From positions 248,682,001 to 248,746,000 of the forward strand of contig OZ024742.1 in the NCBI GenBank assembly GCA_964016885.1: 64,000 bases of DNA, read 5' to 3'. A program made the translations under genes and the position numbers. Positions within the stretch are counted from its first letter, which is position 1. Every line of letters begins with the position of its first letter. Of the stretch, positions 8,174-61,828 are shown piece by piece. The DNA comes from Eledone cirrhosa. Its lineage: Eukaryota. The notes beneath the pieces are model-generated. The model had not been told where the DNA came from, did no database searches, and was given only the letters and a program-made list of their open reading frames with translations.

Positions 8174-8233
8174 TTTCATTTACCATTGGTTTCTTGAAAG
8201 CAAACAAATTTGCTTTCAGTCATCAGAATGAAA
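8174..8233 (-). ncRNA. Type I hammerhead ribozyme
   Basis: TTTCATT CTGATGA C TGAAAGCAAA tttg TTTGCTTTCA A GAAA CCA a TGG TA AATGAAA: 7-bp stem I, 10-bp stem II, GUA cleavage triplet. Confidence 0.8.
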
Positions 8234-8281
8234 AAATCCTGGTGTACACCAGGATTTTTTCATTCTGATCACTTAAAGCAA

Positions 8282-8427
<146 letters not shown>

Positions 8428-8635
8428 CATTTCTGAATTTGTTTAGCAAGATTCTTTATCTGAAAACGTGTGTTGAAACCGTTATTGTTATACTTTGGGA
8501 GGGTCATGTTGCAAATAAGAAACACATGCACCAGCTGCTTTCACTTCAATTTATTATAATAAATTTATAAATTTAGGAATTAATAAATTTCCGCTTGGTT
8601 GGTTGGTTCCACAACCAGGTGGTTGTATATATATT

Positions 8636-8678
8636 GTCAAAGTTCTTTCGTCACACATTCTGTGACCTCTTCAGTGAC
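8636..8678 (-). ncRNA. Minimal hammerhead-like motif
   Basis: GTCA CTGAAGA G GTCACA gaatg TGTGAC GAAA GAAC TT TGAC. A related copy lies at about 9842-9883 (-). Confidence 0.55.
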
Positions 8679-8799
8679 TGGGGATTCTTTTCTTTGTTTT
8701 TGTGCCTCTCCTTTGTTCTGTCCTACGCCATCTTGTGTCAGAAACAAGATGGCGTAGGACAGTACAAAGTGAGGCATAAAACAATGAAAAGAAGCCCCA

Positions 8800-8842
8800 G
8801 TCACTGAAGAGGTCACATAATGTGTGACGAAAGAACTTTGAA
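8800..8842 (+). ncRNA. Minimal hammerhead-like motif (mirror copy)
   Basis: GTCA CTGAAGA G GTCACA taatg TGTGAC GAAA GAAC TT TGAA. Confidence 0.5.
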
Positions 8843-8989
8843 AATATATAAACAACCATCTGGTTGTGGAACCAACCAACCAACCGGAAATTTATAAATT
8901 CCTAAATTTATAAATTTATTATAATAAATTGAAAGGAAAAGCAACTGGTGCGTGTGTTTCTTATTTGCAACATTACCCTCCCAAAGTAT

Positions 8990-9136
<147 letters not shown>

Positions 9137-9343
9137 CAATATATAATCAAAATGGATGCAGTAAAAAACAGATGGACCATTGCTCAGCAATTTACTCGAT
9201 ACTTGGTGTAGTAGAGTGAAATAATATTATGAAAGAGTCGGGATCCCGACGGCTGAGCTATTGCCGTTTCAACAGCTACCTCCAGACTGAGTTTGGAACT
9301 AACTGTTTAAACGGCAACAGCTCAGCCGTTGTGGTCCAGACTC

Positions 9344-9416
<73 letters not shown>

Positions 9417-9620: not shown

Positions 9621-9730
<110 letters not shown>

Positions 9731-10007
9731 ATACTTTGGGAGGATCATGTTGCCAATAAGAAACACACGCAGCAGATGCTTTCAATTTATAAATTTCCGG
9801 TTTGTTGGTTGGTTCCACAACCAGATGATTGTTTATATATTGTCAAAGTTTTTCATCACACATTCTGTGACCTCTTCAGTGACTGGGGATTCTTTTCTTT
9901 GTTTTGGGGCCTCTCCTTTGTTCTGTCCTACGACCCTCCCAAAGTATAACAATATCGGTTTCAACACACGTTTTCAGATAAAGAATCTTGCTAAACAAAT
10001 TCAGAAA

Positions 10008-10057
<50 letters not shown>

Positions 10058-11677: not shown

Positions 11678-12080
11678 GGTGGCTGCCAACTCGTTTTCAA
11701 GTACAGCCACTACTTTATATCCATGTAGGAGAACCCCTACCAATGCGCTGAACGAGTGTGACTTTTTAGTCCAGCCAGCGACTTGAAAACTCTGGTACAA
11801 ACACTACACTTGTGACAATTATTGACACATAGTGCTGGGCCCTTGGTACCATGTGACGACAAGTGCAGAGAGATCTCCAGATATAAAGTAATGCCTGTGC
11901 CGTGAAGCTTTTATAGTGAGCAAAGGCACTGCACAAAGCCAGTCCCACACTCTTAACCAAGATGATATTTACCAAAAAGAAGAACAAATCAACATCATTG
12001 GATAGCATCAGGGTTGCAGGTGTTATATCAGGGTTTTCCTTCTCCTAGAATTCTGCCTTGACAAAGGCTAAGGTGTCATC
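11678..12080 (-). mobile_element. 5'-truncated copy of the bipartite RTE-derived non-autonomous element
   Basis: Near-identical to the reverse complement of about 45647-46048; inserted in (TA)n. Confidence 0.85.
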
Positions 12081-15452: not shown

Positions 15453-15491
<39 letters not shown>

Positions 15492-15686
15492 TGTTATACT
15501 TTGGGAGGGTCATGTTGCCAATAAGAAACACACGCACCAGTTGCTGTCACTTCAATTTATTATATATTTATAAATTTATAAATTTACAAATCTACAAACT
15601 TATAAATTTCTGGTTGGTTGGTTGGTTCCACAACCAGATAGTTGTTTATATTTCAGATAAAGAATCTTGCTAAACAAATTCAGAAA

Positions 15687-15768
<82 letters not shown>

Positions 15769-20702: not shown

Positions 20703-21136
20703 AATATGTTTTATTTCTGAATTTGTTTAGCAAGATTCTGTATCTGAAAGCGTGTGATGAAACCGATATTGTTATACTTTGGGAGGGTCACGTTGCAAAT
20801 AAGAAACACACGCACCAGTAACTTTCACTCCAATTTATTATAAATTAAATTATAAATTTAAAAAAAAATTTCTGTTTGGTTGGTTGGTTCCACAACCGGA
20901 TGGTTGTTCATATATTGTCAAATTTCTTTCGTCGCACATTCAGTGACCTAATCAGTGACCGGGGATTCTTTTCTTTGTTTTGTGCCTCTCCTTTGTTCTG
21001 TCCACGCAGAATGTGTGACGAAAGAACTTTGACAATATATGAACAACCATCCGGTTGTGGAACCAACCAACCAACCGGAAATTTATAAAAAAAATGTTCA
21101 TTTATAATTTAATTTATAATAAATTGGAGTGAAATC

Positions 21137-22943
21137 ACCCTACAAACGTACCTAACCCGAGTCAATTTCCTGGACGTTACCCTTAACCTCGATAATTATC
21201 TGTACTACCCATACAGGAAACCAAAGAAGCTGCACTAAATCCACCGCCACTCTAACCATCCTAGAAACATCACCAATACCTGGTTGAAAACATCTCCCTC
21301 CGCAAATCTCTTTTGTCCGCTAATGAGCAGATGTTCGACGAACACGCGCCTCATTACAACCAGGCCCTCAAGCGGAGTGGCTTCCGGGAGGAAATATCCT
21401 TTTATCCAGCTTCCCTTAGCGGATCCAGCAGGCGACACCGCCGCTCACGCAACGTAACGTGGTTCAATCCCTCCCCATAATGCCGAGGTGGCAACAGCTA
21501 TCGAGAAAATCTTCTTTAGACTCCTCGAAAAACACTTTCCACTACAACACCGCTACCACAACATAATCAACAAAAACACCATCAAACTCTCCTACAGCAC
21601 CACACCTAACTCCGCACAAAACATCGTCTCCTTAAACAACAAAAAACTCAACCCCTATGGAAGAAATAACCTAGACATCAGTGGAGAGCCGACCAGGAGG
21701 TGTAACTGCCCTGATAGATCTACGTGCCCCCTCTACAACAAATGCCGAGAACGTAACGTGATCTACCAGTGCAACGTGAGGACGGACACCTCCAACAAAG
21801 CTTATATAGGATTAACCGCGTGTGACTTCAAGACCCGGCTCTACCAACACCGACATACTTTCCGAAACCCGGTCCGGTGACATACCACTACACTTTAGGG
21901 CCACATCTGGGACCTCCAAGATAATAATATAACCTACAATCTCACTTGGAGCTTACTGCCACAAACTAACTCTTACACGGGAGGACGCCGTCCGTGTAAC
22001 TTATGCTCGGAGGAAACATTACAAATGCTGTTTTCGAAGGACCAACTCCTAAACAAGAAAGAGGAACTGGTAACCGCATGCAAACACAGATTGCGTAGGT
22101 CTTACCTCGACCTCAAACCCCATAACGACCCGGGTGGGTAGACAAGGGCTGATACCCCCTACTTGCCGAATAAGTTATGGGAAACCCAGTTTACTTAGGT
22201 AGATGTATCTCTTTTCCTTTCTTTTCCTCTATGTCTTCTTCTTCCCCCTGTCTCATCCTATCACTTCTTTCCACCCACTATTTTCTTCCTCGTCTGCTTT
22301 TCCCCTTAGCTTACCCCGATGCATCCCATCGGGCCTATGTAGCATCAGTTCCCCCACCCCTGTAATCTTAAGATAGAATTGGCCGAATACGTTATACTAA
22401 CTACTTATAGCAGACGAGTTAAACCCCTTTAATTCTGTATCAGTTCTGGTACTACTCAATTTCTACAAGTTCTTTCTATTCTCAACTTATTAATCTGTAA
22501 CTGTAAGATAGCATTGTGATTTTTTTTATTAATTTCTCACTATCTAATTTTATATATTTTTTTTTTTTATTATTTCTTTCTATTATATTTTATTGTCTCC
22601 TACTCTCATTCGATTTACCTATTCTATAACCTCCCTCCTCCACTTCATACTCTATCTTCAGAGTCTGCTGTATACATATCACTTTCAACGCTTGACCGCT
22701 CCTGTCACTCCCCTATTGTTCTACAGGCAAGTTCAGCCACCCCTACCTTCCACCAAATGCCATGATAGAATTATTTGTGTTTACAACAAATTTTAACCAA
22801 TACTCTTGACAACTACAATCTTCCCATATGAGGAAGTACCCCCTTGAAAAGTTCGGCAATTTATTCACCAGGCTAAAAATTCTAATTTAGTCCAGAAATA
22901 GCCGTCAAAACGGCTTGAGCTCTGCCGTTGGTGTCATACTTTT

Positions 22944-24822: not shown

Positions 24823-25733
24823 CCAAACGGAACCTGAACTCTTAAGGTCTGATTCCTGGGTATGTCACTATTTATAAAACAAATTTTTTATTTTATCTTA
24901 TGAGGAGAGCGTACCAAATTTTTGGTACCCTTGAAATATATATAATAGAATAAATATGGTTTTATAAATATAGTTTCCATATATTAATATCATTGATACT
25001 ATACTCCTGAAAACTTGTCGAGTGCTTCGAATCTTTTATAAATATATTCGCGGAATTACCAACAAATTAAACATCTCTTTGCTTATATATATATATATAT
25101 ATTAGTTTTGCGAGGTTTTTGATATGAAATCGTGTGTCGAAAGAAATATTGGTATACTTGGGGAGGGTCATATTTGTGTAATAATATTGCCAGAATTAAT
25201 AACAGAACACACTCACTGTTTGGTTGGTTTTCGCTTCTGTGTCCTTTATATCGCTTAATTTAATTTATTCGGTCCTCAAAGTTACCACATCGTCAGTGGT
25301 GCTATTATGTTTCCTCCCATTGCATTGTATGCCTACGCCATCTTTATTTAGTCTGTTTATTTATTTATTTGTTGTTTTTTTCTCTTCTCTGCGCATGCGT
25401 TTGCGTGTGTGTATAGTGTTTTGTTTGATGTGTGTTCGTATTTGGGTGACGATGTTGCAGATGTGGAACGAAAGAACTTTGTTAGACTATATATATGTGT
25501 TTGTGTCTATATTCTATCTGTATTTTTGACCGTTAGTAAGTCAATGGTAACATTGAGGACCGAATAAATTACATTAACCGATATAAAGGACACAGAAGCG
25601 TAAACCAACCAATTTTGTTTAGTAAATGTTGTACCACATCACTCTGATACGTATCACTACGCGTATGACAAAAATTATTTTAATACACGCATTTCCCTAC
25701 ATGTATTCAAAATATATGATACTCATAATGCAG

Positions 25734-26929: not shown

Positions 26930-27672
26930 GCCCAGAATCATTCGGTTTCCTAAAGAGAATATTAGTTTAATGACTCCATTTATACCATAAACGTGGTTTT
27001 GCCTTTGCGTGTATTTGTTCTCATCCCACCACATAACAACGTATTATCTTCGCATTTTTCCGTTCATTGCCAGAGAACGTCTTCACGAACCAAAGTATCG
27101 TCTTCCTGTTTTCCTTCGGTTGCAACGTTTTTCGAAATATTTACTTCTGCGTTAACAGATTGATTTTTTTAGTTTCAGCAGATCCCGTTAAGGGTGAAAG
27201 CAGCGATTCTTTGCTTAAATAATAACAATAAACACATATAAACACACACTAATAAACTAAGATAGAATACAATAACCAAAACATATACACGCAAACGCGA
27301 ACACACACGCCAAACACTATACACACACGCAAACGCATGCGCAGAAGCGAAGACAAAAATAAATAATAAATAAATAGATAAAATAAAAAAGGCGAACACA
27401 TTTCAATACATACAATACAGCAGGGGAAACATGATAATAGTACCACTGATGATGCTGCAGATGTGAAACGAAAGAACTTTGTTAGACTATATATATACAT
27501 ATATATCTGTATTGTTAACCGTTGGTCAGTCAGTGATAAACATTGATGGCCAAATGAATTAACTATGGAGATATAAAAGATGCAGAAGCGAAAACCAACC
27601 AAACAGTGAGTGTGTTCTGTTATTATTTCTGGCAATAATATTACAACAATATGACCCTCCACAAGTATAACA

Positions 27673-27703
<31 letters not shown>

Positions 27704-30700
27704 GCCATTGAAAAGAAATATGGAGAATCGATCTAACAGCACTAGGGTTAGAGCCCCTAATTACACTGTCAAGGAGCAGCCTGGTCGTTATGACTCTGCT
27801 GGCTTAGAGCCACAGAGAGGGCCAGTGGATGATGGATCAGCTGTCTCTGAGACAAATATAAAGAATGCAGTTTTGTCCTGCAGAAGAGCCATCAAAATGG
27901 GCACTTTGAATGTGAGGACTATTCGAACGCTGGAGAAGAGAGAGGAGTTGGTACATCTGTTCGAGGAGAGTGGTATACAGATACTTGCGATCCAAGAACA
28001 CAGGATTCTACACGATGAGCCTGTGAGGAGTGTGATGATCGGGAGGAAGAGCTAGCTCATCACTACATCGGCAGTGAAGAACACAACAAATGCTGCAGTA
28101 GGAGGAGTGGATTTTGTGTTCAGTGGAAAAACCAATCTGTTGGTGAGGGAAATAATGCCTATCTCCCCGCGAGTGTTGAGGGTGACCTTCAATGGAAACC
28201 CAAGACTGACAGTCATCTCAGCCTATAGTCCAACCGAGGGGGACAGTGATGTGAATTTTGAGGAGTTCCATGAGGAGGTGTGTAGAGCTGTCAACACCAC
28301 TCAGGCACACAATATCCTGCTTGTTTTGGGGGACTTCAATGCACATCTGAGTAAGGAGGGCAGTGAAGATCCTTGCTGGTACTTCCATAACAACACCAAC
28401 CGAAATGGAAGACTACTGAGAGACACCCTGCTGGAGGCGAACTTGATGGCGACCAACCTAAGGTTTAGGAAGAATCTGGGGAAGATGTGGACCTACATCT
28501 CAGATATGCACCTGTCCAAGTCCCAGATTGATTTCATTCTGGTGAGGAAAAAGTGGCGGAATAGTGTTCTGAACACGGAACCATACAGCTATTTCAGTAC
28601 ACTGGGTAGTGACCACCGGCTTGTTATGAGTGAGGTCCGCGTGAGCTTAAGAAAGAGCAAAGCTCAGCCCCGGAGAACAATCTATGACTGGGGAGCTTTC
28701 AAGGAAGATGATAAGCTACAGGAGAGGTTCACAGTGGAAGTGAGAAACAGGTTTAGTGCTCTGTGTGGAGAGTCAGAGGAGAGAGAGATTGGATGGACTG
28801 AGGAGAGTGTGACGAGGAGGTACGGGCACTTCACCAATGCAGTGGCGAAAGCAAGTGAAACCCTGGTGCCGAGGAAAAAGAACAAAGGGAAGCACGTCAG
28901 CTCTGCAAACCCAAAAGTGTGTGCAGCCAGAGAACACCTGAAAGCTGCCAGGGACCAATTCTATGCTGATCCTACGGAGGAGAGGATGGAGACTGTGGAG
29001 GTGATGAGGGAAGGGCTCTGTACCGGTTACACTGCGGTCAGAGAGGAGGCACTGATAGAGAAGATCAGAAGTGTGGAGAGAGCGGTTGACAGATCTGGAT
29101 GTAAGGAGAGCTGGATGATCATCAACGAGATCACAGGGAGGAAGAAAAGGTGTTCGAGTCAGATCCAGGGAACGGGGCCCGAGGATAGGAAGAGGAAATG
29201 GCTAGACCATTTTAGGACCCTACTAGGAGAGCCACCCTCCACAGCCCAGAGCTCTGGGGAGATCAGGCGGCTGTTTGAGGAACTGGATGTTGAGACAGAG
29301 CCCTTCATCAGAGAGGAGCTTCAGAGAGCCAAGAGGAAGATCAAGGAGGGCAAGGCTCATGGAGAAGATGGAGTGGCATCAGAGGTGATGAAGAGGTGTG
29401 ATTTTGATGATATCATCCTGGGGTTCTGTAACGGGGCACTGGAGAAAGGAGTTGCCCCGAATCAGTGGAGGATCAGTAACATCGTCCCAGTGCCAAAGAA
29501 GGGAGATCTCTCTAACACCAACAACTACCGGGGGATCTCACTGACGTCACTTGTGGCAAAGACCCTCAACGGGATGATTCTTAACAGGATCCAGCCTGAG
29601 ATGGAGAAGAAGCTCAGGGACAACCAGAACGGCTTCAGAGAGGGTAGATCAACCACCTGTCACATCCTGATGCTGAGGAGGATATTAGAGGGAGCTAGAG
29701 AAAAGTGCCTACCTGCGGTCATGGTTTTCATTGACTTTAGGAAGGCCTTTGATTCTGTGGACCGTTACTGCCTGATGAAGATCTTACAGGCTTATGGAAT
29801 CCCCAAGAGGATAGTGGACCTGATATCACTGCTCTACACCAACACCAAAGCCCAAGTCATTACACCTGATGGGATGACAGAGTTCTTTGAGATACTGGCT
29901 GGAGTGCTCCAGGGAGATACATTGGCTCCCTACCTTTTTATCATCGCAGTGGACTATTGTATGCGCCTTGCACTGGAGAAACACCAGGACTCTGGCTTTA
30001 CTGTAGCACCGGCTCAGAGCAGGAGAGTTGGGGCGAAAAAGGTATCAGATGCTGAATTTGCCGACGACATAGTTTTGGTGACAAATACAGTGAAGGAGGC
30101 AGAGGATTTGATGCGGGAGGTTGAGACTGTGTCGATGAGTGTGAGGCTGAGAATGAATGAGACTAAAACAAAATATCTGGTAGAGAATGTTGAGAAGCCA
30201 GAGAGGATCACTAATGTAGGCGGGAAGCCGTGGAATTGGTTGAGGACTTCCTGTATTTGGGAGCAAAGATTGGGAATACGGAAGATGATGTGGTTGAGAG
30301 GAAGAGCAAGGCCTGGGCGGCGTGTCACAGCTTGAGATCGGTGTGGAAGTCGGACCTTCTTAGAGACCTGAAAATCCGCCTCTTCATTGCTGTAGTGGAG
30401 TCTGTGCTGCTGTATGGGTCTGAGACTTGGACACTGACCAAGAGACTCACTCAGATGGTGGATGGGTGCTACACGAGAATGCTGAGGATGGCTCTGAACA
30501 TTAATCAGTATACACTGAGGATGAAAAACTCAGAGCTGTATGGGAGCATCCCAAAAGTCAGCTCAAAAATGACACAGAGGAGACTGAGGTTGGCTGGACA
30601 TGCTCACCGACATCCAGAGTTGACATTGCACTCAGTGCTCCTTTGGGAGCCCCTACATGGACACACTAGAAGAGGAAGACCAAGGTTAACATATGTTGAT

Positions 30701-30818
30701 GCCCTAAGGACAGACACTGGTCTGTTGGAGATGCAGGATATGGCAGCGATAATGAGGGACAGAGACCACTGGAGAGAACTCGTCCATGGATCTCGGGAAT
30801 TTTACCCGCCTTAGATAG
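27704..30818 (+). mobile_element. Near full-length RTE-group (RTE/RTEX) LINE inserted in (TA)n
   Basis: Purine-rich block, much more GC-rich than its surroundings, bounded by (TA)n on both sides. The stop codon runs directly into TAGATAGATATATA. Confidence 0.95.
27720..30814 (+). pseudogene. APE endonuclease / reverse transcriptase ORF (about 1030 aa) with two lesions
   Basis: APE motifs GTLNVRT, IQEHR, SAYSPT, GDFNAH, IDFIL, SDH. RT motifs PKKGD, YRGISL, QNGFR, DFRKAFDSV, GVLQGD, FADD, YLG. C-terminal YGSETW, RRLRLAGH, RGRP. In-frame TAG at 28053-28055 and a 1-nt frameshift near 30230. Confidence 0.95.
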
Positions 30819-30959: not shown

Positions 30960-32380
30960 TGTATTCGTAGCTTATATTGTAAGAATGGAGGAGCAGATGG
31001 ATATATGCTACGTTAATGGGTTGATAAAATAATTTAAATTTAAGTGGCCTTTAAGATTGGGTTATTAAGGTATTACTAATTTACTATCGTTAAGAAGTGT
31101 TCTTTAGATTAATTAAAATTCATTGGAACAGAAAGACATCTATTTTTATAATAATTATTATTTTAGAAATTTTGCGTGAGAAACTGTTAAAGATGCGAGG
31201 AGATCTATGAATTAAATCTAGTCAATGTTTTAGTTAAATTTTTTAAGTAACATTTTCCGTTATTAAACTTTAGTTAGCAACGTTTCAATTAGTTACAATT
31301 TAGTGGGAATTGGGGAGTTTTTATCATTCTAGTAATTAGTGTATTAGAGTTTTGAAGTTATAAACTGTTTAAGAGGTGGGGAGATGTATAGATTAGAACT
31401 ACGAAAGTTTCAGTTAAATTGTATTATTAATATGTTGCAATATATGGTTAAAGTTTTGTGAGCCACATAAATTTAATATTTAGTATAATAGAAAGATTGG
31501 GCACTTTTATGTGAGCAGGCAAAAAGAATCTCAGATATTCTGTTTAGGATATGGAAGTTAGACTTTAAAATAGAGAGGTATTCCAATGGCACAAATTACC
31601 CCTTCGTGTTCCAAGTTGGTATGCTTGGGCAAATTTAAGAATTTTCCAATTTATGGAAAATTCTATATTGGCCTATTATACGTCCCATATATACCGATCT
31701 AATGAGGTTGAACTACTTCGCTTTTTCTCCCTAAAAGAGTGACGATGCACACAATCTCTAGATTTAAAGCTATATGTTCCTTGTCATTATTATAAGTTGA
31801 TAGATTGCATTGGTTAACCTAAATTTTCAGTTAGACAATTAACGTTAAATGGGCAGGTAGAAGTTAGTTTCAGTTCCTGTTAAATATTAGATTGCTATTA
31901 AGGTTAGAACTTTAAGATGTATCATTGAGTGGAAGGTACGATTATTGTTGTTTGGACGATCTCTTACTTCTATATTACATTGGTTTGTATTATCATAAAA
32001 CATAATATCTTATTTTCTTATTTTCATGTTAGGCCTAGACATAGAACAGTTGGCTAGATTAAGAGTAGTAACGTAAGATTTTTTTCGGTATTCTTATTTT
32101 TTATTATATAGCAACGGTGGGTTGGAGAGAAGTTTTTCGCTAGGATCTTAAAACAATAGATCTGGTATATTAGAAATTGTGAGCATACTAAATGGAAGGT
32201 TAAACCACGTAATGGGAGTAGATTAAATGTTATCTAGCACACTCTAACCTGGCTTAATTCCAAGCTGGTTATCGTTAAAAATGTTAAGCTTCAATCTACT
32301 TTTCCTTGTATAAACATTTAACTGAGAATTTAGTTAATTTAGTTCAGGCCGATTCAGGGTGTGTACGTTGTGACGGCCAT
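30960..32380 (+). mobile_element. Decayed Penelope-like RT remnant (GIPMGTN type)
   Basis: AGAGGTATTCCAATGGCACAAATTAC at about 31574-31599 reads RGIPM(G)TNY; a degenerate YIDD-like segment lies near 31685 and LDLK near 31758. Confidence 0.5.
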
Positions 32381-32849: not shown

Positions 32850-33350
32850 TTGCTGTTCCCATAGTTTGTGTACTCTGCTTTGCCGCTATTTTGTATGGGT
32901 TTCTGGTTAGCTTGAGCTGTCCTGTATAATAGCGAATATTTGTTTGATTTAAGTGTATTTTTTTTGTTCAACCTTGGTCTATGTAGTGTCATATTATGCG
33001 AGATAATGTTGTTATAGTTTATGCAGACTACTTGGTGGCTTATCCTTATACACAACTGTATCATTATAAGCAGATCTGTGTAGTGCTTCATTGTAATATT
33101 GAGAGCTCTGATCAAAGCCGTCTTGGTTAAAGAAGAGTCTAGAAATGCGATTAGATACTGTGTAAAAAATAGATTGTTCTTCTATGGATGGATTGATAAT
33201 GAACGTAGAATAGGAGTACGGCAGCGTTTTGTAAAGGTTTGTATAGACCACACTCTAGGTTTAAGTTTACTTCTAGAAAGTTCACTACACTATTATTAGT
33301 GTCGAAATATATTATAATTTTATACTCCTTAAACAATCTCTGCAAAAGTG
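32850..33350 (-). mobile_element. Penelope-like element fragment (RT thumb/linker)
   Basis: DTNNSVVNFLEVNLNL..YKP..YVHYQSIH and SNRISRL..YYNEALHRSAY in adjacent frames. Confidence 0.7.
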
Positions 33351-34678: not shown

Positions 34679-34749
<71 letters not shown>

Positions 34750-34967
34750 AAGTATGTATGTATACGTACATATATATATGTATACAGACGTACAGTAGTA
34801 TGTATATATATACATACATGCACACATATATATATATGCACGTATCGGTTTACCGAACATTTATTATAATGCTCGGTTTGTTTGTTTGTAAACAAACAAA
34901 CAGCCCGAATTACGCCGTACAGTGTTTAGGAAACCACGTCACCTTTTTGTTCAGCATTGACACAGGA

Positions 34968-35010
34968 ACGATGTACTAGTTTCAAGCTTATTTGATATCG
35001 TCAGCATCGT
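34968..35010 (-). ncRNA. Minimal type I hammerhead ribozyme
   Basis: ACGATG CTGACGA TATCAAATAAGCTT GAAA CTAG TA CATCGT: 6-bp stem I, palindromic stem III, stem II mutated. Confidence 0.7.
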
Positions 35011-35329
35011 ATACCTTCCTGCCAAATGGTTGAACGTCTGAAAGTATATACTTTCCTTATGCATATTAACGGCTGAGCAGCCTAATTTGCATATCGAGTA
35101 AGTTCAGTCGGCCGGGCGCACCGAAAACGATAAATGGAATAGAATGAAACGAAATTTCATTTCTCACTCTTAGTACGGCACTTACTTAAATGTAAGTATG
35201 TATGTATACGTACATACGGTGCGCCCGGCCGACTGAATTCACTCGATATGTAAATTAGGCCACTCAGCCGTTAATATGCTTAAGGAAAGTATATACTTTC
35301 AGACGTTCAACCATTTGGCAGGAAGGTAT

Positions 35330-35372
35330 ACGATGCTGACGATAGCTAATAATCTTGAAACTAGTACATCGT
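35330..35372 (+). ncRNA. Minimal type I hammerhead ribozyme (mirror copy)
   Basis: ACGATG CTGACGA TAGCTAATAATCTT GAAA CTAG TA CATCGT. The consensus of both copies gives stem II AGCU-aaua-AGCU. Confidence 0.7.
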
Positions 35373-35654
35373 TCCTGTGTCAGTGTTGAACAAAAAGGTG
35401 ACGTGGTTGCCTAAACACTGTACGGCGTAATTAGGGCTGTTTGTTTCTTTACAAACAAACAAACCGAGCATTTTAATAAATGTTCGGTAAACCGATACGT
35501 GCATATATATATGTGTGCATGTATGTATATATATACATACTATTGTACGTCAGTATACATATGTGCGTATACATACATACATATTTACATTTAAGTAAGT
35601 GCCGTACTAAGAGTGAGAAATGAAATTTCGTTTCATTCTATTCTATTTATATAT

Positions 35655-39330: not shown

Positions 39331-39935
39331 GGTGGCTGCCAACTCGTTTCGAGTACAGTCACTACTTTATATCCATGTAGGAGAACCCCTACCGATGCGC
39401 TGAACGTGTGTGACTTTTTAATCCAGCCAGCGACTTGAAAGCTCTGGTACAAACACTACACTTGTGACAATTATTGACACAATGCTGGGCTCATGGTACC
39501 ATGTGACGACAAGTGCAGAGAGATCTGCAGATATAAAGCAATGCCTGTGCCGTGAAGCTTTTATAGTGAGCAAAGGCACTGCACAAAGCCAGTCCCACTC
39601 TCTTAACCAAGATGGTATTTACCAAAAAGAAGAACAAGTCAACATCATTGGATACCATCAGGTTTGCAGGTGTTATATCAGAGTTTTCCTTCTCCTACAA
39701 TTCTGCCTTGACAAAGGCTAAGGGGTCATCTCTCCCGCTGATTTTGGATGGCCATTGACTCTTAAACGCTCCTTTGCCCTATTACAGGTTTTGATTTTAG
39801 TACTGCAGGATGTCCAAAGTCACCCTCCTCACCAAGAAACCTTGGTGTGGTTGCCAGTTTAGTCGCCAACGACCCGACCAGGAGACAGGTTGTACTGGGA
39901 TACATGTTACCAGTAGCACCAACTGGTGACCTGAC
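39331..39935 (-). mobile_element. Bipartite RTE-derived non-autonomous element, full length
   Basis: Reverse-complement match to 45442-46048; flanked by (ATGT)n and (TACA)n. Confidence 0.85.
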
Positions 39936-44171: not shown

Positions 44172-44277
44172 ATGTTACTGATGAATGAAGACGGACATAA
44201 GTATCAAGCTCTTCAAGAAACCACTGGTAAATGAATTAATTATTTTATGTTGTTTATTACATAATTATATAAATATA

Positions 44278-44321
<44 letters not shown>

Positions 44322-44420
44322 TAGTTATGTAATAAATAACATAAGATAATTAATTCATTTACCAGTGGTTTCTTGCAGCGCTTGATACTTATGGCCGTCT
44401 TCATTCATCAGTAAAAAATG
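44172..44420. repeat. Convergent inverted pair of HHR-bearing fragments around (TA)n
   Basis: CTGATGA..GAAACCACTGGTAAATG at 44178-44233 (+) and its reverse complement at 44356-44411 (-). Same family as 8174 and 52401. Confidence 0.75.
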
Positions 44421-44462: not shown

Positions 44463-44471
<9 letters not shown>

Positions 44472-45213
44472 GTAAGAAACACAGTAAACCGTGTGTCTAA
44501 AATTACAAGGGTTGAAAAACCACATTTGTTTGAAATATTTAACCAAGAAGCAGACAGAATGATAACATATACAAACCGCCTCAATAACCATTATATCTCT
44601 CGGACAGATTATCCCTAATCTGTTTCGCCCTGAGTGTGTTTGTAACAGATAATCCTGGGCTTCATCAGCGAGAGATTCTGATTAAATGCCACAAACACTA
44701 TTTGCCAACGTTCACACAGAAAGATGAATTTGTCACCTCGTGCTCCGCTAGTCAAACGTGGTAAGCGTGTATTAAATAGAAATAGAAATAACAGTCCAAC
44801 ACACGCAACTTAATAAGCTCAACTTGTGAGGGAGCAGAAATATATGAAAATTAGAGTTAACACTCAATTGGAACCCTGCAACTATTAAGCTCCAAGTATA
44901 AATACTGAGCTGATAAATAATATATAGTAAGAAACAGTAAACCGTGTGTCTAAAATTACAAGGGTTGAAAAACCACATTTGTTTGAAATATTTAACCAAG
45001 AAGCAGACAGAATGATAAAATATACAAACTGCCTCAATAACCATCTGTCTGCTTCTTGGTTAAATATTTCAAACAAATGTGGTTTTTCAACCCTTGTAAT
45101 TTTAGACACACGGTTTACTGTGTTTCTTACTATATATTACTTATCAGCTCAGTATTTATACTTGGAGCTTAATAGTTGCAGGATTCCAATTGAGTGTTAA
45201 CTCTAATTTTCAT
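44463..45213. mobile_element. Retrozyme-like 453-bp unit: about 1.28 tandem copies (-) plus an inverted partial copy (+)
   Basis: 44463-44591 is repeated at 44918-45044. About 45044-45213 is the reverse complement of about 44842-45011. (TA)n on both sides; canonical HHR inside. Confidence 0.8.
44595..44676 (-). ncRNA. Canonical type I hammerhead ribozyme with GUC site
   Basis: ATCTCTCG CTGATGA A GCCC..GGGC GAAA CAGATTA ggga TAATCTG TC CGAGAGAT: 8-bp stem I, 7-bp stem III, predicted cleavage between 44603 and 44602. Confidence 0.9.
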
Positions 45214-45441
45214 ATATATATATAGTTTTTGGTAGTTAAAACGTACGACGAGCGCTGCTAATTGTATTCAATTGTAAAATTCTAATCGCAAGCATCTTTT
45301 TAACTACACTTGATTTGTTTACATATATATGGCTTTTAATATGAAAGCATTTAATTTAACGGAGTAATACGTTGCTACAAACGTTTAGCTAACTTACCTC
45401 GAAATTAAGAGGTGTATGTATGTATGTATATATATATATAT

Positions 45442-46048
45442 GTCAGGTCACCAGTTGGTGCTACTGGTAACATGTATCCCAGTACAACCTGTATCATGGT
45501 CGGGTCGTTGGCGACTAAACTGGCAACCCCACCAAAGTTTCTTGGCGAGGAGGGTGACTTTGGACATCCCGCAGGACTAAAAACAAAACCTGTCAAAGGG
45601 CAAAGAGCTCTTAAGCGTCAATGACCATCCAAAATTACCGGGAGAGATGACCCCTTAGCCTTTGTCAAGGCAGAATTCTAGGAGAAGGAAAACTCTGATA
45701 TAACACCTGCAACCCTGATGGTATCCAATGATGTTGACTTGTTCTTCTTTTTGGTAAATACCATCTTGGTTAAGAGAGTGGGACTGGATTTGTGCAGTGC
45801 CTTTGCTCACTATAAAAGCTTCACGGCACAGGCATTGCTTTATATCTGGAGATCTCTCTGCACTTGTCGTCACATCGTACCATGGGTCTAGCACTATGTG
45901 TCAATAATTGTCACAGGTGTAGTGTTTGTACCAGAGTTTTCAAGTCGCTGGCTGGACTAAAAAGTCACACTTGTTTAGCGCATCGGTAGGGGTTCTCCTA
46001 CATGGATATAAAGTAGTGGCCGTACTCGAAAACGAGTTGGCAGCCACC
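45442..46048 (+). mobile_element. Bipartite RTE-derived non-autonomous element (about 607 bp)
   Basis: Contains the RTE 5'UTR-type motif CTAGGAGAAGGAAAACTCTGA. The 3' part encodes [20 protein letters not shown] (C2H2 finger like an RTE ORF C-terminus) and ends in the hairpin ACTCGAAAACGAGT. Confidence 0.8.
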
Positions 46049-46479: not shown

Positions 46480-48430
46480 GAAGCAGATGTTGATTTGTTT
46501 CGGTATATTCCGTAAGAATTTAATGGATGCCATTCACACAATAGCACTTAAGGTAACAATAGACACGAACTTCTATAATGCCAATTCCCTCGATATTAGC
46601 TTAGACTCAATCACATGATGAAAAAACCATATGAGAAAACTAATGAAAAATTAAAATATATTAACATAGTATCTTGACCCCCACAATGTTGTTAAAATCA
46701 TCATAATGTATAATAGCAGTTATAGGATCTGAAACCTCCCAGCCTCTAAGGAGCTATTGAATAAGCTTGCGCCATTCTACAATAATACACTCATAGATTG
46801 TAGCTTCAAAGACAAAAAATTAAGTACGAACCCAATCAACTCCATCGCAAAAAATACTAATAATTGAAACTGAATATTTACCTGGCTCCATCCTATTCTT
46901 CTAACGTAAAAACAAATTAAGGTAAGAAATTCCAAGATCTAATTCATAAACATTTACCAGTACAATGTGTTCCTCTATTTACCTTTATAAAGTACTGTTA
47001 TTTGTACACTTTTATTTTTTTTACGTGTTCTAATTCCCTATAGTTGTCTAAGCACAGCTTGATGGAAGATAATATTAGAGAAAACCAATGAAGAATGACA
47101 TGATGCTGAATCAAAACAAAAGCAATATATACAAACACACACACACCGACCACAAGTAAATATGGAATGATACGCGACGCCATCACTCCCTACCCCACCA
47201 CAGCCCCGGCGGTCAGAATGGAGAAATGGAGAAGGCGTTTCCCCGAGGACAGCAAGGGAGACGCGCTGGAAAAGCCACTGCAACCCGCGGGGCCCACACC
47301 TGCGGCTGGCCAGCTCAGCGCCTATGGTGATGAGTAGGGAGGTAGCCCTAGGGCCAAAGACACCAGAAGTCTCCACTGCCAGGGGCACAACCACAAACCT
47401 ATCGGAGAGCGACCGGTATTTGAGGAGTTTAGCCCCCTCAGCCCGACGTGCAGCAGAACCTGGGTTAATAGCAGACTGCACCAGGTTGCGGCTGCAGAAA
47501 GTGTCTGTGCAAGTAGCATCCCAGACGAGGGGTTTGCCATCGCAGAACGGGAAGATGGTCATGTCATCTGGCCTTTTGCCGTTCCCTTGGTCCAGCCCCA
47601 CCGGCACGAGCTGGGAAGGGAAGCCTGCAGCGTCCAAGCCATGCTTTATGCCCTCGTTGAGGGCAGATATGGTGTGGAAGGCAGCCGGCACTGTGGAGAT
47701 AGGAAAGTGGGTGGAGGCCGAAAGTGTCTACGGTGGATCCGCAGCGACACTGGTGTGGCTCGCAGATCCGGAGGCCGAGCCTCAAGGAAACGCCAATGCG
47801 CAGGCTATTATTGTCTAGCTGCGTACCAGTGGAGAGGGAGGGCAGGCCATAGAGCCAGACACCACTGTGGCGTTTGGAGGTCACACGAAAACAGGCAAGG
47901 CGGTGCTGGTCGAGTTGGCGCGTGAGCCTGTCTGAGGCCAGGCTTCTCTGGATGGCATCCCAGTACAATATAGGTAAAGTAAAATATTCAATCGAAGTTT
48001 TCTGACGATATCCTAATCCTGCAGCCCTTCTATGTGCTCGAAAATTACCAACTTAATATAAATCCAGACTGCTCTTGCAGGATTAATGAGAAAGGCCATC
48101 TACAACACCTGTGTAATATACAATTTATCTTTTGAAAGGCAGATATCATACATGCTGCTATAGATAATACAGGTTTCAGTTAAAGATGTATGGTGCATGA
48201 TCGTTTTAAAGAACGAGTTTACTTGCATTCTACACTCCTTTAGATATCCTGAAATTTGAACCAACACAACCCTGGCGAAAATAATCTGACAGTTAAAGGA
48301 TAAAAGAATCCCACATGAAATAACATGGTAAATACTTGAGAATTCCCAAACTTAGAAGATCAATATAACAGATGCTACTTCAACCTCATTGATAAATTTA
48401 AGATTTTACAAATTCTGTCTTCTGCAAAGA
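46480..48430 (+). mobile_element. Decayed Penelope-like element split by a CRE-like insertion
   Basis: LKVTIDTNFYNANSLDISLD..PYEK.NEKLKYIN. Removing the insert restores IHKHLPVQ|YR*SKIFNRSFLTIS*SC, the KHFP..KIFN..ISYSC motif. Confidence 0.7.
46967..47959 (-). mobile_element. 5'-truncated CRE-like non-LTR retrotransposon (zinc knuckle plus RLE) with 10-bp TSD
   Basis: SGVWL..LRLG..CRCG..FGLHPLS / ALN..GKRPDDMT..LVWDATCTDT..AE..K..KY..VPLAVETSG..LFQRVSLAV, with a frameshift between the two ORF pieces. TSD CCAGTACAAT at 46957-46966 and 47960-47969. Confidence 0.85.
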
Positions 48431-48670: not shown

Positions 48671-49264
48671 TGGTGCTACTGGTAACATGTATCCCAGTAC
48701 AACCTGTCCCATGGTCGGGTCGTTGGCGACTAAACTGGCAACCCCACCAAGGTTTCTTGGTGAGGAGGGTGACTTTGGACATGCTGCAGGACTAAAAACA
48801 AAACCTGTCAAAGGGCAAAGGAGCTCTTAAGAGTCAATGGCCATCCAAAATCACCGGGAGAGATGACCCCTTAGCCTTTGTCAAGGCAGAATTCTAGGAG
48901 AAGGAAAACTCTGATATCACACCTGCAACCCTGATGATATCCAATGATGTTGACTTGTTCTTCTTTTTGGTAAATATCATCTTGGTTAAGAGAGTGGGAC
49001 TGGCTTTGTGCAGTGCCTTTGCTCACTATAAAAACTTCACGGCACAGGCATTGCTTTATATCTGGAGATCTCTCTGCACTTGTCGTCACATGGTACCATG
49101 GGCCCAGCACTATGTGTCAATAATTGTCACATGTGTAGTGTTTGTACCAAAGTTTTCAAGTCGCTGGCCGGACTCAAAAGTCACACTCGTTCAGCGCATC
49201 GGTAGGGGTCCTCCTACATGGATATAAAGTAGTGGCCGTACTCGAAAACGAGTTGGCAGCCACC
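48671..49264 (+). mobile_element. Bipartite RTE-derived non-autonomous element
   Basis: Near-identical to about 45455-46048; flanked by (TA)n. Confidence 0.85.
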
Positions 49265-51528: not shown

Positions 51529-52357
<829 letters not shown>

Positions 52358-52400
52358 TATATATATATATAGTTATGTAATAAACAACATAAGGCAATTA

Positions 52401-52471: not shown

Positions 52472-53060
52472 TCTTCTCTTTTAAATCTACACTTATTTTT
52501 ACCTTTTATATTATTAAACCAAGAAATAACAGAGGAAGTATTTAACCACTGTGATAGGTCAGTGTTAGTTCTAATTTGGAGAATTATTTTTCTTAAGATT
52601 TTTTTACTTGCAAGGCCAACTTCGGATTTAGCCGGGTTAATCAGTCTACAACTAGGTCGATTAGTAAAGTCCAATTTATGGTCTTTAAGGGTAATATATT
52701 CTTTACTCTTAGCTAGGCTTTCAATCCGGTTGTCTATTTTTAAAGAACTAGCTAGTTCTTTAGCTTCTTTATTAATAGTATTGTAGGTATTATTATTAGT
52801 TAATTGATATTTGTTGGTGATACTATTAGTTAAAAGTTGGTTATACAAAGTACTATTAACTTCAAAGAGATTTTTAGTTTTATCAGAAAGAACAAAGGTG
52901 TTTGTAGAATTTCTAAAATTAGAAATATCGTTAGACAGTTTAGTTTGAAAGTTATTATTGTACTTACGAAATTTGATATCACTAATTAAATTAACAAGGT
53001 CTAATTCCAAGTTGGCCATGTCTTTAATTCTAGGTGGATATTTACGGGATTTTATGTCAA
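52472..53060 (-). mobile_element. Penelope-like element, N-terminal RT region (open frame of about 185 aa)
   Basis: IKFRK.NNNFQ.KL..DI, SDKTKNLF, ITLKDHK.DF.NRPSCRLINPAKSEVG.ASK.IL and QW.NTS.VI.WF, typical of PLE RT N-terminal motifs. Confidence 0.85.
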
Positions 53061-55419
53061 AACAATCATTAGTATCAGTAAAATCAACAGGTGTAAGTCA
53101 ACAGGTTGAAATTAACATCGTTTATTCATATTCGCCGTTAAATATATTTCGGTGATAACCATTATTCCCATTATTCAACAGCCAGAACCTGAACAGAAAT
53201 AACAGAAAAAACATAATGATGGAACAATGTTTACCACTGTTATTTCGATCTTTTGATATGCCCAATCTCGAAATATGGTGTTATTTTCTCACCAGATCTT
53301 TGAGAAAACACCACCATGCTGGGCGTACCAAAAGATCGAAATAAGCAAGGTAAACGTTTTTCCATCATTATATTTTTCTGTTGTTTTTTCTAGCTGTCTG
53401 ATGAGGCCATAGCTGTTGAATAATGGTTATCGCTGATATATCAATAAGTTAATATTAACCTGTAGACTTACACTTGTTGTTTTTAGATTACTCCAAAGTA
53501 GACAGTCCCACCTGCGCACCTCGTTGAGTGCTCTACTCAGCATACTGAAGTGTCTGTAACTAACCATATAGTGTGTGTGTGTGTGAGAGAGAGAGAGAGA
53601 TATGTGTGTGTATATATATATATACAAAGAGAGAGAAATTCTCCGTCTTGTTCTATTTTTCTATTGAATTATGTACTATATGATCGTGCACGAATGTTAA
53701 ATGCCAACATATAGACCGCCTTTATTTGCATATATATACATCCTTAAATGTGGTCATAGTCACACTGAGAAATTAATTCATGCGGCCTATCTTCTAGTAT
53801 TTCTCCGTTGACAGAAAAAGAACGATGAGTCATTGAGAATATATCAAAATCTATTTCCAAATAGAATCAGATCGTTTACCGTTTATCATTCTGCAGATAA
53901 ATACGTAAAAAAACACACGTTAGCATGTACATACTTTAGCATAGATCAGTTAATTTGTTTGTATACGTGTGCATTTAGATATGTGTATTGTTTCTGTCCT
54001 ACATTTTATCCATTTCCAATGCAAGGTCCACCAATGGATGCGACCGAGTTATAGTTCTAGTCGACATATAATTCTAACTGATATTGGAGATTTATCGCTG
54101 TTTTTCCAGCCATAACTTCATTTTATCCTGTTATAGAAAACCCAGAGCTAGTAGGTCGAGGTCAGAATATAAATGAACCGGTTACGGAAATTCATTCCAC
54201 TTGAGGTTCATATAATTCAACCAAACAATCGCTGTGGTCAGGTATATTATTTATCGAACCAATTAGGATGGAGGCAACGTCAATTTCAAAAATAAGCGAG
54301 CCGCATCAAATGCAAAAATTCATTCTGTCTTACGCTCTACCGATGTATTTTTATTTATTTAGCATATGAAATCAGTAAATCATTTTCCAAACGATAGGAG
54401 TAATATTTTAGAGAATAAATACATACGTGTATATGCCCACATAATATATATGAACGTCTTTATTAACATATATGTAAGGGTATATATGTATGGATATATC
54501 TGCTTGTGGATATGTATGAGTTAATAATGAGTTACCAATTCAAATCAAGACAAATGATAAATACACTAGATATACAATTCTAATGAAGTTACTGTATAAA
54601 CTAATAATATTCATGCCTAAAAGGTTCGTTATTTCCCTCATCTAGTCGACATTTTCCTCCTAGAGTGTATATCTCCTCTTAACTATCATTCATAATACCA
54701 GAAAGGAGAAAGGTGTATTTAATTTCGTTACTGAAATGTAGAACATTAAATAGTGACAAATTTTCTTAGTCTCTTTTATAAATGTTATTCTACACAAAGA
54801 AAAACCCACACTGTACGTCCTGTATCATCTTTAATGTTTCCTGAATGTGAGCCTTGTGTTGCTAATAAAGAAATCAATATTACACACCACAGGTTGCTGA
54901 ACATAATTTGTTGATGAACGAATTTAGAAGAGGTTCTTACACATAAATACCGTGTTTTTGGAGAACATTTTGAAGAAAAATGATTGTCTTATGCAGCTCT
55001 ACTCATATATAAATTGTTTGTGTAGTGTACATATTTCATATTATAAATACTATTATATCAATATATTTGGGGTAAAAGTATATTTGTCTTATCCCACAGA
55101 AAATGAGGTAGCTTCAGACGAAAAAAAAAATCTATTGGATTCTTCAATCTAAAGTATGCATTAGAATAGTAAATTCGGGGTGCCTAATTTATTGAAATGT
55201 GATAGCTGTATACGTAAGGTTTTCAATGGCCGAAGACATAATGGGCGAATCAAATTGAATAACGTAATGCATATACATTAAATTCCAGATGAATTAGTAA
55301 GGAAGACGTCATGAAATACATACGATATTTAAACCTGACATAGACTGTCCCTCTCCACGTCCGAACGTAGCCAACTTATTTTAGAGAATCAAGGATTGGA
55401 AGCGAGAAAACGAGAGAGC

Positions 55420-59456: not shown

Positions 59457-59573
59457 ACACACACACAACACACACATATATATATATATATAATCACATA
59501 TACATATATATAAACATATCTCTCTCTCTATATATATATATGATTATATATATATATATGATTATATACATAT

Positions 59574-59604
<31 letters not shown>

Positions 59605-59668
59605 CATACATATTTATATATATACGTATATATATATTTATATATATACGTATATATATATATATATA

Positions 59669-59734
<66 letters not shown>

Positions 59735-59810
59735 CATGTATATAGAGAGAGAGATATGTTTATATATATGTATGTGTGATTATATATATATATGTGTGTG
59801 TGTTGTGTGT
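59457..59810. repeat. Inverted repeat around a degenerate (TA)n core
   Basis: ACACACAACACACACATATA..TAATCACATATACATATATATAAACATATCTCTCTCTCTATA is mirrored at about 59731-59810. Confidence 0.8.
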
Positions 59811-60115
59811 GCATGTATGTATATATAAATATATATACATTCGTATTTATGCATGCGTATATATATATATCGAGGAATCTAGGAGTAGTTTAGGTATGAT
59901 ACATTTTATTACTAATTATATCTAAATGTTTCTTCTCTCTTCATAATATATATATATATATATATATATATACGCATGCATACATACGAATGTATATATA
60001 TTTATATATACATACATGCACAAACATGAGTATGTACATGCATACACCCATCCGTCTATCGCCATATACACATGTCCGTGTGTGTGTGTATATATACACA
60101 TGTATATATATATAT

Positions 60116-60651
60116 GACAAACATAGAATATTCGAAAATATTCTGTATGTTTATAATAAACATTTTGAAGACCCAATCGCTATAGAATAGAATACGTCAC
60201 GTATTACAATTTGAGATTCTCGATAAAAGCAAGGGAAGTAACCTACGCGTTTCATTCTTATTAGAAATCATCAGGATTACATATCCAATGCTTTTATCGA
60301 GAACGACACAGCTAGAGACTTATAGAATACTTAGCTGTGTACAGGAACTGGTTTGAAAGAGCGGTACCCGGTCCGGCAGAAATTAGAATTTGGATTTAAT
60401 GCTCTGAAATAGCGATATATATGTGAAGACAAACATAGAATATTCGAAAATATTCTGTATGTTTATAATAAACATAATGAAACGCGTAGGTTACTTCCCT
60501 TCCTTTTATCGAGAATCTCAAATTGTAATACGTGACGTATTCTATTCTATAGCGATTGGGTCTTCAAAATGTTTATTATAAACATACAGAATATTTTCGA
60601 ATATTCTATGTTTGTCTTCACATATATATCGCTATTTCAGAGCATTAAATC

Positions 60652-60656
<5 letters not shown>
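60116..60656. mobile_element. Retrozyme-like 312-bp unit: about 1.15 tandem copies (-) plus an inverted partial copy (+)
   Basis: 48-bp direct repeat 60116-60163 = 60428-60475. 60476-60656 is the reverse complement of the unit, starting inside the HHR. (TA)n on both sides. Confidence 0.8.
60238..60280 (-). ncRNA. Minimal type I hammerhead ribozyme
   Basis: GTAATC CTGATGA T TTCT aata AGAA T GAAA CGCG TA GGTTAC, with palindromic stem III and GUA site. Confidence 0.8.
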
Positions 60657-60733
<77 letters not shown>

Positions 60734-60935: not shown

Positions 60936-60945
60936 ATATATATAA

Positions 60946-61114
60946 TATTTCTCCAACAAACCCCCTCCTCAATGCTTACACTATGTCGAATCACACCACT
61001 ACGCGACACCCCCACCTTTCTATATTTTTCTGCATAGGCTTCAGTCTATATAATTTCCCACCTCTCTCTCTCTCTCTCTCTTTATCTCTCTCTCTCTCTC
61101 TCTCTCTCTCTTTA

Positions 61115-61159
<45 letters not shown>

Positions 61160-61234
61160 CAATCTATCTATCTATATATATATATATATATAGAGAGAGA
61201 GGTAGAGAGAGAGAGAGTGAGAGAGAGAGAGAGC

Positions 61235-61305
<71 letters not shown>

Positions 61306-61412
61306 TATATAGACTGAAGCCTATGCAGGAAAATATAGAAAGGTGCGGGTGTCGCGTAGTGGTGTGATTCGACATAGTGTAAGCATTGAGGATGGGGTTT
61401 GTTGGAGAAATA
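60946..61412. repeat. ~470-bp palindrome: unique arm-(CT)n-(TA)n-(GA)n-inverted arm
   Basis: About 60946-61057 is the reverse complement of about 61301-61412, with a few substitutions. Confidence 0.9.
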
Positions 61413-61828
61413 TCGGAATAGGAACACGTAGTATTATAAAGATAGAAGGGAGCCCTGTGAGAGGGTGGGAATGAGGGAAAGATAGAGAGGTGAGAGTAGG
61501 TTATTATAAAGGTTTTAAGGGCAGTAAGCATGAGGGTTACAGAATGAGGCGGGTGAAGGATCAAAGTTAGTTGGAATGATGCGGAAAAGAAATGGGCTGG
61601 CGGGGGTTAGGATATAAAGAGTAGAAGATGAAAGCATGGTGGACTCTTGGTGGAAGTAATGGTGAAGGTGGTTATCGTGTTGGTGGTGATGTCGTTGATG
61701 ATGGTATTAGTGTTGGATGGGAAAGAGAACAACTGAGAAGAGATATGAAGAGGTTGTGGTATGTGAGGTACATATATATATGTGTGAGGGTATGTATTTT
61801 TATGTGTGTTTCTGTGTGTGTGTGTACG

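Follow-up and report, generated by a model that had tools for sequence, protein, structure and literature searches.

A young 312-nt hammerhead ribozyme unit in Eledone cirrhosa, probably inserted by a Penelope-like element

Within 64,000 nt of Eledone cirrhosa DNA (contig OZ024742.1, positions 248,682,001 to 248,746,000; hereafter the window), an insertion at 60116-60656 is probably a recent copy of a 312-nt non-autonomous hammerhead ribozyme (HHR) retroelement, or non-LTR retrozyme. It was probably made in trans by the RT/GIY-YIG enzyme of a Penelope-like element (PLE), plausibly of the (TA)n-targeting Hydra clade. The architecture of this insertion, here called X, matches the published PLE scar point for point, and hence indicates a PLE-type insertion. 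The PLE partner itself we infer, because no sequence tie was found between the unit and any PLE ORF, including those of the window. X is therefore probably a retrozyme-like, non-autonomous PLE passenger: a real and young copy, although probably an inactive one.

Anatomy of the insertion

Read on the minus strand, the insertion consists of one monomer (60116-60427) followed by an exact 48-nt repeat, with 60116-60163 recurring as 60428-60475 at a period of 312. This is joined, with neither exact microhomology (0 nt) nor filler (0 nt), to an inverted arm identical to a circularly permuted unit at 180 of 181 nt (Table 1). The inverted arm comprises 141 nt corresponding to 60116-60256 and 40 nt corresponding to 60388-60427, leaving the inverted end 40 nt longer than the direct end, as a one-sided tail. 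Its first 13 nt are AATGAAACGCGTA (60476-60488), H17 included. The locus extends over about 1.15 direct units plus the inverted tailed arm, is flanked by (TA)n on either side, and contains only one complete HHR. An earlier note on this DNA had described a 312-bp unit at these coordinates, with the junction inside the ribozyme and the inverted arm starting about 13 nt 5' of the cut, and the repeat analysis (period 312; arm from 60476) agrees on each point. The note missed the 40-nt tail, and named neither the PLE nor the retrozyme context, though this explains the whole structure.

Table 1. Features of the insertion at 60116-60656 and PLE relics of the window
Feature	Coordinates	Strand	Basis or detail
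312-nt non-coding retrozyme-like monomer	60116..60427	-	repeat analysis, ORF scan
Flush 3' end of unit; putative RT start site 1, 128 nt 3' of cut	60116	-	position
Partial tandem (pseudo-LTR-like)	60428..60475	-	exact 48-nt repeat of unit 3' end; 5' limit of first cDNA
Inverted 5'-truncated second copy, 181 nt	60476..60656	+	single mismatch, in distal helix I extension
40-nt tail (= 60388-60427), absent from the other end; putative RT start site 2, 168 nt 3' of cut	60617..60656	+	
17-nt hairpin palindrome ending exactly at junction	60459..60475	+	with preceding bases resembles HHR core + helix II
16-bp terminal hairpin just 5' of flush end	60117..60154	-	
Left (TA)n flank, target	60103..60115	.	
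Right (AT)n flank, target	60657..60730	.	TSD not resolvable in repeat
Type I hammerhead	60238..60280	-	helix I 6 bp; CUGAUGA core; GAAA
Extended helix I around ribozyme	60216..60304	-	UAU/U internal loop, 3 bp, then 16-bp distal stem
3' half-ribozyme	60476..60494	+	last 3 nt of helix II, GAAA, palindrome, cut site, helix I 3' strand
PLE RT/GIY-YIG relic, broken	21137-22132	+	Hydra-clade motifs
PLE RT/GIY-YIG relic, broken	52483-53061	-	Hydra-clade motifs
PLE RT/GIY-YIG relics, broken	31589-31861, 33184-33312	-	
PLE RT/GIY-YIG relics, broken	46508-46894, 48206-48352	+	

Only 1 of 229 positions differs between the duplicated parts (0.44%, 95% CI 0.01-2.4%), supporting the earlier view that the arms are nearly identical and the insertion young, although conversion between the inverted arms could also keep them alike. 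The unit has 35% GC and lacks an ORF, the longest stop-free stretch in a dimer being 43 aa in sense and 56 aa in antisense. Folding models predict strong self-pairing both as linear RNA (z = -4.2) and as a circle (z = -4.8, 61% paired). Of the features of non-LTR retrozymes, a non-coding unit of 150-450 nt, GC below 50% and a type I HHR are present, as are those of PLE insertions: a partial tandem with an inverted 5'-truncated copy, a 40-nt tail at one end, and a microsatellite target. The unit has no ORF combining RT and GIY-YIG, as an autonomous PLE would, relics of these being found only elsewhere in the window.

No further copy or tandem array of this family was found in the 64-kb window, where blastn returned the locus itself only, and nhmmer gave three weak matches, the top two being the arms of a second family, B (E 0.048 and 0.49). 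The HHR pattern found nothing (0) in a prokaryote genome collection, which is unsuited to a eukaryotic element. A TGACGT, which we take to be CRE-like, occurs on the minus strand of both X (60194-60199) and B (34936-34941), 44 and 32 nt 3' of the cut, respectively, and is absent from family D; it is a possible promoter element.

A canonical type I ribozyme predicted to act as a dimer

The ribozyme of X has CUGANGA, GAAA and UH joined by helices I-III, and its ends lie in helix I. On the minus strand C3 is at 60274 and H17 at 60244, and the cut is predicted between 60244 and 60243. Helix II has a U.U at its base and 3 bp, closed by the loop UAAUAA, while helix III is a single base pair capped by CGCG, forming the palindrome A15.1-CGCG-U16.1. 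The G10.1-C11.1 pair at the base of helix II is absent, being replaced by U.U in X and both arms of B. A strict HHR descriptor matched 5 motifs in the window, and none in any of 30 block shuffles; with a looser pattern, there were 24 candidates. At the gathering score, Rfam had 0 matches in the whole window, and an E-value scan of 60050-60700 placed Hammerhead_HH9 at 60224-60289 (minus; 20.6 bits, E 0.019, gathering score 52) among 19 mostly spurious hairpin matches. The miRNA matches in the same interval were rejected as products of the inverted repeat and the (TA)n.

Family B (34747-35650) is a 444-nt, ORF-poor unit that is a remote relative of X, with the same type of HHR. The ribozymes align without gaps over 76 columns, and across three sequences from these two families 43 of 45 cells pair, with both sides changed in 9 of the 15 pairs, whereas slid controls are only 31-47% paired. 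Common to both are the U.U at the base of helix II, an AAUAA-type loop 2 and the UAU/U loop 1; the helix I extension of UAU/U loop and 3-bp helix is likewise common, two of its three pairs being compensatory, and the loop-3 palindrome is CGCG in X and CUAG in B. Full-unit similarity is borderline, with an alignment score of 44 against shuffles with a mean of 28 (sd 4.6, maximum 44 of 200). The covariance model recovered its three training sequences in the window, plus a chimaera at the junction (60432-60507, 23.5 bits). Judged from sequence, the ribozyme of X is structurally real, and conforms to the classical animal type I form rather than the minimal type lacking helix III.

The earlier note's 'minimal HHR' was therefore a mislabel, given the 4-nt loop 3, 6-bp helix I and short helix II. 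In the available text of Cervera and de la Pena (2014, PMC4209133), minimal HHRs of PLEs have no helix III or loop 3, a long helix II and a short helix I. X resembles these in being type I, in its palindromic positions 15.2-16.2 and in its predicted dimer action, but differs in its canonical 6-bp helix I, 4-position helix II and arrangement of loops 1 and 2.

The note's reading of the self-complementary helix III as a dimer type fared better. In folding models of a tandem dimer of X, the swapped-dimer fold has -153.0 kcal/mol and two monomers -145.3 kcal/mol, an advantage of 7.7 kcal/mol, and the core alone gives -13.7 kcal/mol as a dimer versus +5.8 for two monomers; the axolotl analogue needs dimers, as described in PMC7229834. 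By analogy, X would cut efficiently only as a swapped dimer. Against an active ribozyme, the predicted MFE is not the active fold: the unconstrained tandem dimer folds at -162.9 kcal/mol, and the active fold lies above the predicted MFE by 8.8 kcal/mol (monomer) or about 10 (dimer), in models that ignore tertiary contacts. In a modelled read-through transcript, GAAA, loop 3, the cut site and the 3' strand of helix I pair with the inverted arm. Because the inverted arm would thus occupy the 3' half of the ribozyme, this copy is probably catalytically dead. The half-ribozyme of the inverted arm is itself predicted to be unable to act alone, because it is without the 5' core.

Other insertions and PLE relics in the window

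The ORF-poor HHR units B and D carry the same scar as X, and its pattern of one flush and one tailed end is repeated in families B, D and A. Family B has a 26-nt overshoot, a 61-64-nt tail, arms 93.6% identical, 1.06 units and a complete second HHR in its inverted arm, and appears from its sequence to be the older insertion. Family D (44465-45217) has a 455-nt unit, a 125-nt overshoot, a tail of about 80 nt, arms 98.9% identical and 1.27 units; helix III of its HHR (C3 at 44668, minus) is long, at about 8 bp, and the ribozyme is expected to be functional as a monomer. The four family A insertions (8430-8996, 9724-10010, 15489-15689 and 20709-21137) lie in (TA)n, with HHRs, inverted arms and a tail of about 56 nt. 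Between A2 and A4, the ends of the direct arms differ by no more than 1 nt and adjoin a CGCCATCTT motif that is presumably YY1-like; this CGCCATCTT-side end may be the transcript 5' end. The direct arm of A3 stops 7-8 nt before the predicted cut, as expected of a cleaved template. Family E (25146-25612 and 27255-27676) comprises old copies with terminal sequence common to family A; in E1 the direct arm is without most of the HHR, and the inverted arm begins at the core.

Other HHR sequences were also observed. The HHR ends of family C form a tail-to-tail pair around a single (TA)n tract at 44175-44414, and a fold-back palindrome at 8139-8283 whose second arm halts inside helix II. A diverged core similar to that of D lies at 51970 (minus), and further cores at 6136 (+), 15867 (-), 57277 (-), 7046 (-) and 37318 (-), three of them with a TATATA-type palindromic loop 3.

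The PLE relics of the window are all broken (Table 1). The piece at 52.5 kb continues without a break into a 3' end that carries an HHR and terminates in (TA)n; it belongs to a family other than X. Its fragment 52501-53097 had 233 homologues among 1139 candidates (best 59% identity), and tblastn of those longer than 640 aa against the window marked six regions (seven position bins), including 21137-22132. The window fragments carry DKT, CxCX5C, CxxC and CxH, and a full-length homologue of 52501-53097 also RWK, which are motifs of the Hydra clade in the available text of PMC8557442; this assignment was read by eye against that paper rather than from a tree. Naiad and Nematis were first guesses for the clade, and were dropped. 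No family was assigned by Pfam to the two window fragments, nor any relevant one to five homologues; of three sequences queried in NCBIfam, one had a single weak retron RT match, and a PDB search found nothing. The Atlas linked a PLE homologue to RVT_1 and GIY-YIG clusters at 0.96-0.97. Of 169 pattern matches of the RT fragment in the prokaryote genome collection, none was confirmed.

The window is AT-rich, eukaryote-type and microsatellite-laden, with about 11% simple repeats and 22-50% GC. It also contains a LINE-type element (28056-30814, plus) with an AP-endonuclease and RT ORF of 759 aa (28056-30335) that apparently continues in another frame; a 400-600-nt repeat in four copies of 94-96% identity (11678-12080, 39331-39933, 45444-46048, 48671-49264); and a dispersed repeat of roughly 190 nt (1220, 14678, 32445, 32647, 63177 and elsewhere). 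HHR-free palindromes or inverted duplications occur at 60945-61413, 59490-60030, 708-850, 437-558, 9231-9347, 52164-52358 and 53079-53485, several being centred on microsatellites.

The RNA template and a model of insertion

From a monomer released by two cleavages, RT could copy no more than 128 nt if it began at the flush start, or 168 nt if it began at the tail start. The arms of X, at 360 and 181 nt, exceed these limits, and hence the template was intact at the cut site, if sense RNA was copied. It would then have been an uncut multimer, a read-through transcript with a single HHR, or a circle, with uncut and religated RNA indistinguishable. The earlier note had reached an uncleaved or religated template from the inverted arm. 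Both arms do cross the cut, but the direct arm is the stronger evidence, because it passes the cut by about 230 nt and is longer than one unit; the inference fails for the inverted arm if this was made on DNA or antisense RNA. Neither religation nor a circle is required, as a read-through RNA with one HHR would also stay uncut.

The following sequence of events would account for X. A tandem master copy elsewhere would supply an RNA longer than one unit, or a circle. As helix III has only 1 bp, and efficient cutting would need the swapped dimer (the activity being judged from analogues), an RNA with a single HHR should stay intact. By analogy with PAc, the Poseidon element of Anolis, a PLE enzyme would then cut both strands of a (TA)n tract and extend both ends on the sense RNA, internal RT starts at two sites 40 nt apart leaving one flush and one tailed end. 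If RNA-templated, one cDNA ran for 360 nt and the other for at least 181 nt, each of them passing a cleavage site that was still uncut. The two cDNA 3' ends would finally join head to head, perhaps by imperfect annealing of the end of the first cDNA to the HHR helix II region of the second, which might place the junction in the ribozyme by an accident of sequence. The last 15-25 nt of the first cDNA do have their best match on the sense unit (own hairpin aside) ending 3 nt from the real junction, a post hoc resemblance equalled by 2.5% of positions, or 6% with the hairpin counted. Junction homology as a general rule is unsupported across the window loci: B, D, A3 and A4 show none, the case of A1 is trivial, and A2 has it in part. 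Exact microhomology is 0 nt in X, 0 in B and 1 in D.

Position of the junction and alternative explanations

By chance, a junction would fall inside the ribozyme in 10-14% of cases per end, and 19-26% for either of two ends. The mapping of 5' junctions against the cut that the earlier note had called for covered eight head-to-head HHR loci of the window (X, A1-A4, B, D and E1), leaving aside the tail-to-tail pair at 44.2-44.4 kb, the 8.2 kb fold-back, single-arm copies and HHR-free palindromes. Relative to the cut, the inverted arm begins at -13 in X, -99 in A1, +135 in A2, +175 in A3, -22 in A4, -149 in B, +45 in D and about -33 in E1, these offsets having been entered by hand. The 5' end thus lies between C3 and H17 at three of eight loci with X (P = 0.015-0.09) and at two of seven without it (P 0.08-0.26 for an assumed target of 7-14%). 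The enrichment is not significant, and the position of the X junction within the ribozyme is probably incidental, adding little.

That the ribozyme fold itself sets the junction, either through RT stalling in the HHR core or through co-copying of two RNAs held by a dimeric helix III, consequently seems improbable. The three 5' ends inside the core (X, A4, E1) would suit it, but X was selected for this very trait, the E1 copy is old (74-77% identity) and its junction ambiguous, no two of the three stops coincide and none is at the cut, and in B, the closest relative, the stop lies 149 nt upstream. A 2'-phosphate religation scar as the RT stop was likewise rejected by reasoning, because the stops lie away from the cut. 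An origin of the inverted arm at the DNA level, by a template switch during replication or repair within a tandem copy that already existed, or by self-priming on an antisense template, is unlikely; were it true, the cut site would say nothing about the template of this arm. A 17-nt palindrome does end exactly at the junction, the available text of PMC3846280 reads junction palindromes of head-to-head PLE copies as antisense-template self-priming, and the window has several HHR-free fold-back duplications near microsatellites (such as 708-850 and 60945-61413). However, a fold-back on the first cDNA needs a second switch to supply the 40-nt tail, the pairing of flush and tailed ends recurs in B, D and A, and two-strand extension on sense RNA has been demonstrated in vitro (PMC11167929).

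It is also unlikely that X is a pseudo-LTR (pLTR) remnant or one-off internal deletion of an autonomous PLE, with no retrozyme family of its own. In favour of this, pLTRs are known to contain HHRs (PMC4209133), canonical HHRs and insertion in (TA)n are features of Hydra PLEs (PMC8557442), retrozymes are related to pLTRs (bioRxiv 2026.07.22.740005), and at 52.4-53.1 kb an HHR end is joined to an RT fragment, albeit of a different family. However, the 3' end of X leads directly into the tail, and 312 nt later the same 3' end is reached again; hence the repeat unit is closed, without an ORF. Near-identical arms beside long (TA)n tracts, in a window with many palindromes, could hint at an assembly or amplification chimaera, or a fold-back artefact. 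This is very unlikely, as the same architecture is found with arms at 93.6% (B) and 98.9% (D) identity, meaning that it arose repeatedly and aged, and the permutation of the X arm needs two separate switches. Copying of a retrozyme-like RNA by a PLE enzyme is therefore the preferred explanation, although the tails of B, D and A, at 56-80 nt, are longer than the 30-40 nt published for PLEs, which counts against it.

Relation to known elements

Metazoan non-LTR retrozymes have units of 170-400 nt (Cervera and de la Pena 2020, PMC7229834, available text). Of the axolotl ribozymes described there, HHR_Amex1 has a 1-bp helix III with a palindromic tetraloop and HHR_Amex2 a U.U at the base of helix II, and both cleave much better as dimers. 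X is like axolotl and other metazoan retrozymes in its non-coding unit, GC below 50%, type I HHR and self-paired fold, sharing helix III with Amex1 and the U.U with Amex2. Unlike in the axolotl, both weakening features are found in one ribozyme, and the locus, known from sequence alone, is 1.15 units with an inverted tailed arm rather than an array of at least two HHRs. Dimer cleavage by HHRs has been described (PMC6765202), although among retrozyme dimers tested one of nine cleaved (bioRxiv 2026.07.22.740005).

PLE insertions, as described by Craig et al. (2021, PMC8557442), have a partial tandem, an adjacent inverted 5'-truncated copy, a 30-40-bp tail that is often one-ended, and a bias towards microsatellites; available parts of PMC3846280 and PMC8969392 give the same pattern. 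The Hydra clade adds canonical HHRs and (TA)n targets (PMC8557442). X shares all of these with EN+ Hydra-clade insertions, but has no RT-EN ORF, a unit that closes on itself at 312 nt, and no sequence tie to an autonomous family. In vitro, the PAc protein cuts and extends both strands, two internal RT starts bound the tail, unprocessed RNA serves as substrate, and RNA with a dead HHR inserts equally well (Frangieh et al. 2024, PMC11167929, available text). X would be alike in that its tail is bounded by two internal RT starts, both 3' of the HHR, and in its AT-rich target and use of uncut RNA. However, the HHR and tail of PAc overlap the start of its ORF, whereas the starts proposed for X, at 128 and 168 nt from the cut, fall within non-coding RNA.

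The element class, the ribozyme type, dimer cleavage and the scar have therefore all been described already, and trans-mobilisation of pLTR-flanked DNA and of non-autonomous PLEs has been reported (PMC8557442, PMC3846280). The link between retrozymes and PLEs has been called likely (PMC7761336), and argued from co-occurrence and pLTR similarity (bioRxiv 10.64898/2026.07.22.740005). In open-access text, no paper was found that uses insertion scars as evidence for it, the available text of bioRxiv 10.64898/2026.07.22.740005 containing 'tail' 0 times and 'inverted' once. The remaining interest of X hence lies in its insertion footprint, and in the pattern of a unit plus overshoot, which is seen in all three full units (X 1.15, B 1.06, D 1.27), each inserted in a microsatellite with a flush end, a tailed end and an inverted arm.

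PLEs are proposed, yet unproven, mobilisers of animal retrozymes (PMC7229834, PMC7761336, bioRxiv 10.64898/2026.07.22.740005). As a nearly unmutated, ORF-less HHR unit with a full PLE scar, X is a clean example, from which two exact RT start sites are predicted and which offers a ready template for an in vitro test. It is a tentative possibility that the scars of X, B and D are footprint evidence of Hydra-clade PLE enzymes copying animal retrozymes in trans, and that the small overshoot could mark an RT that has gone once round a circular RNA, before stalling where it would have to displace its own cDNA.
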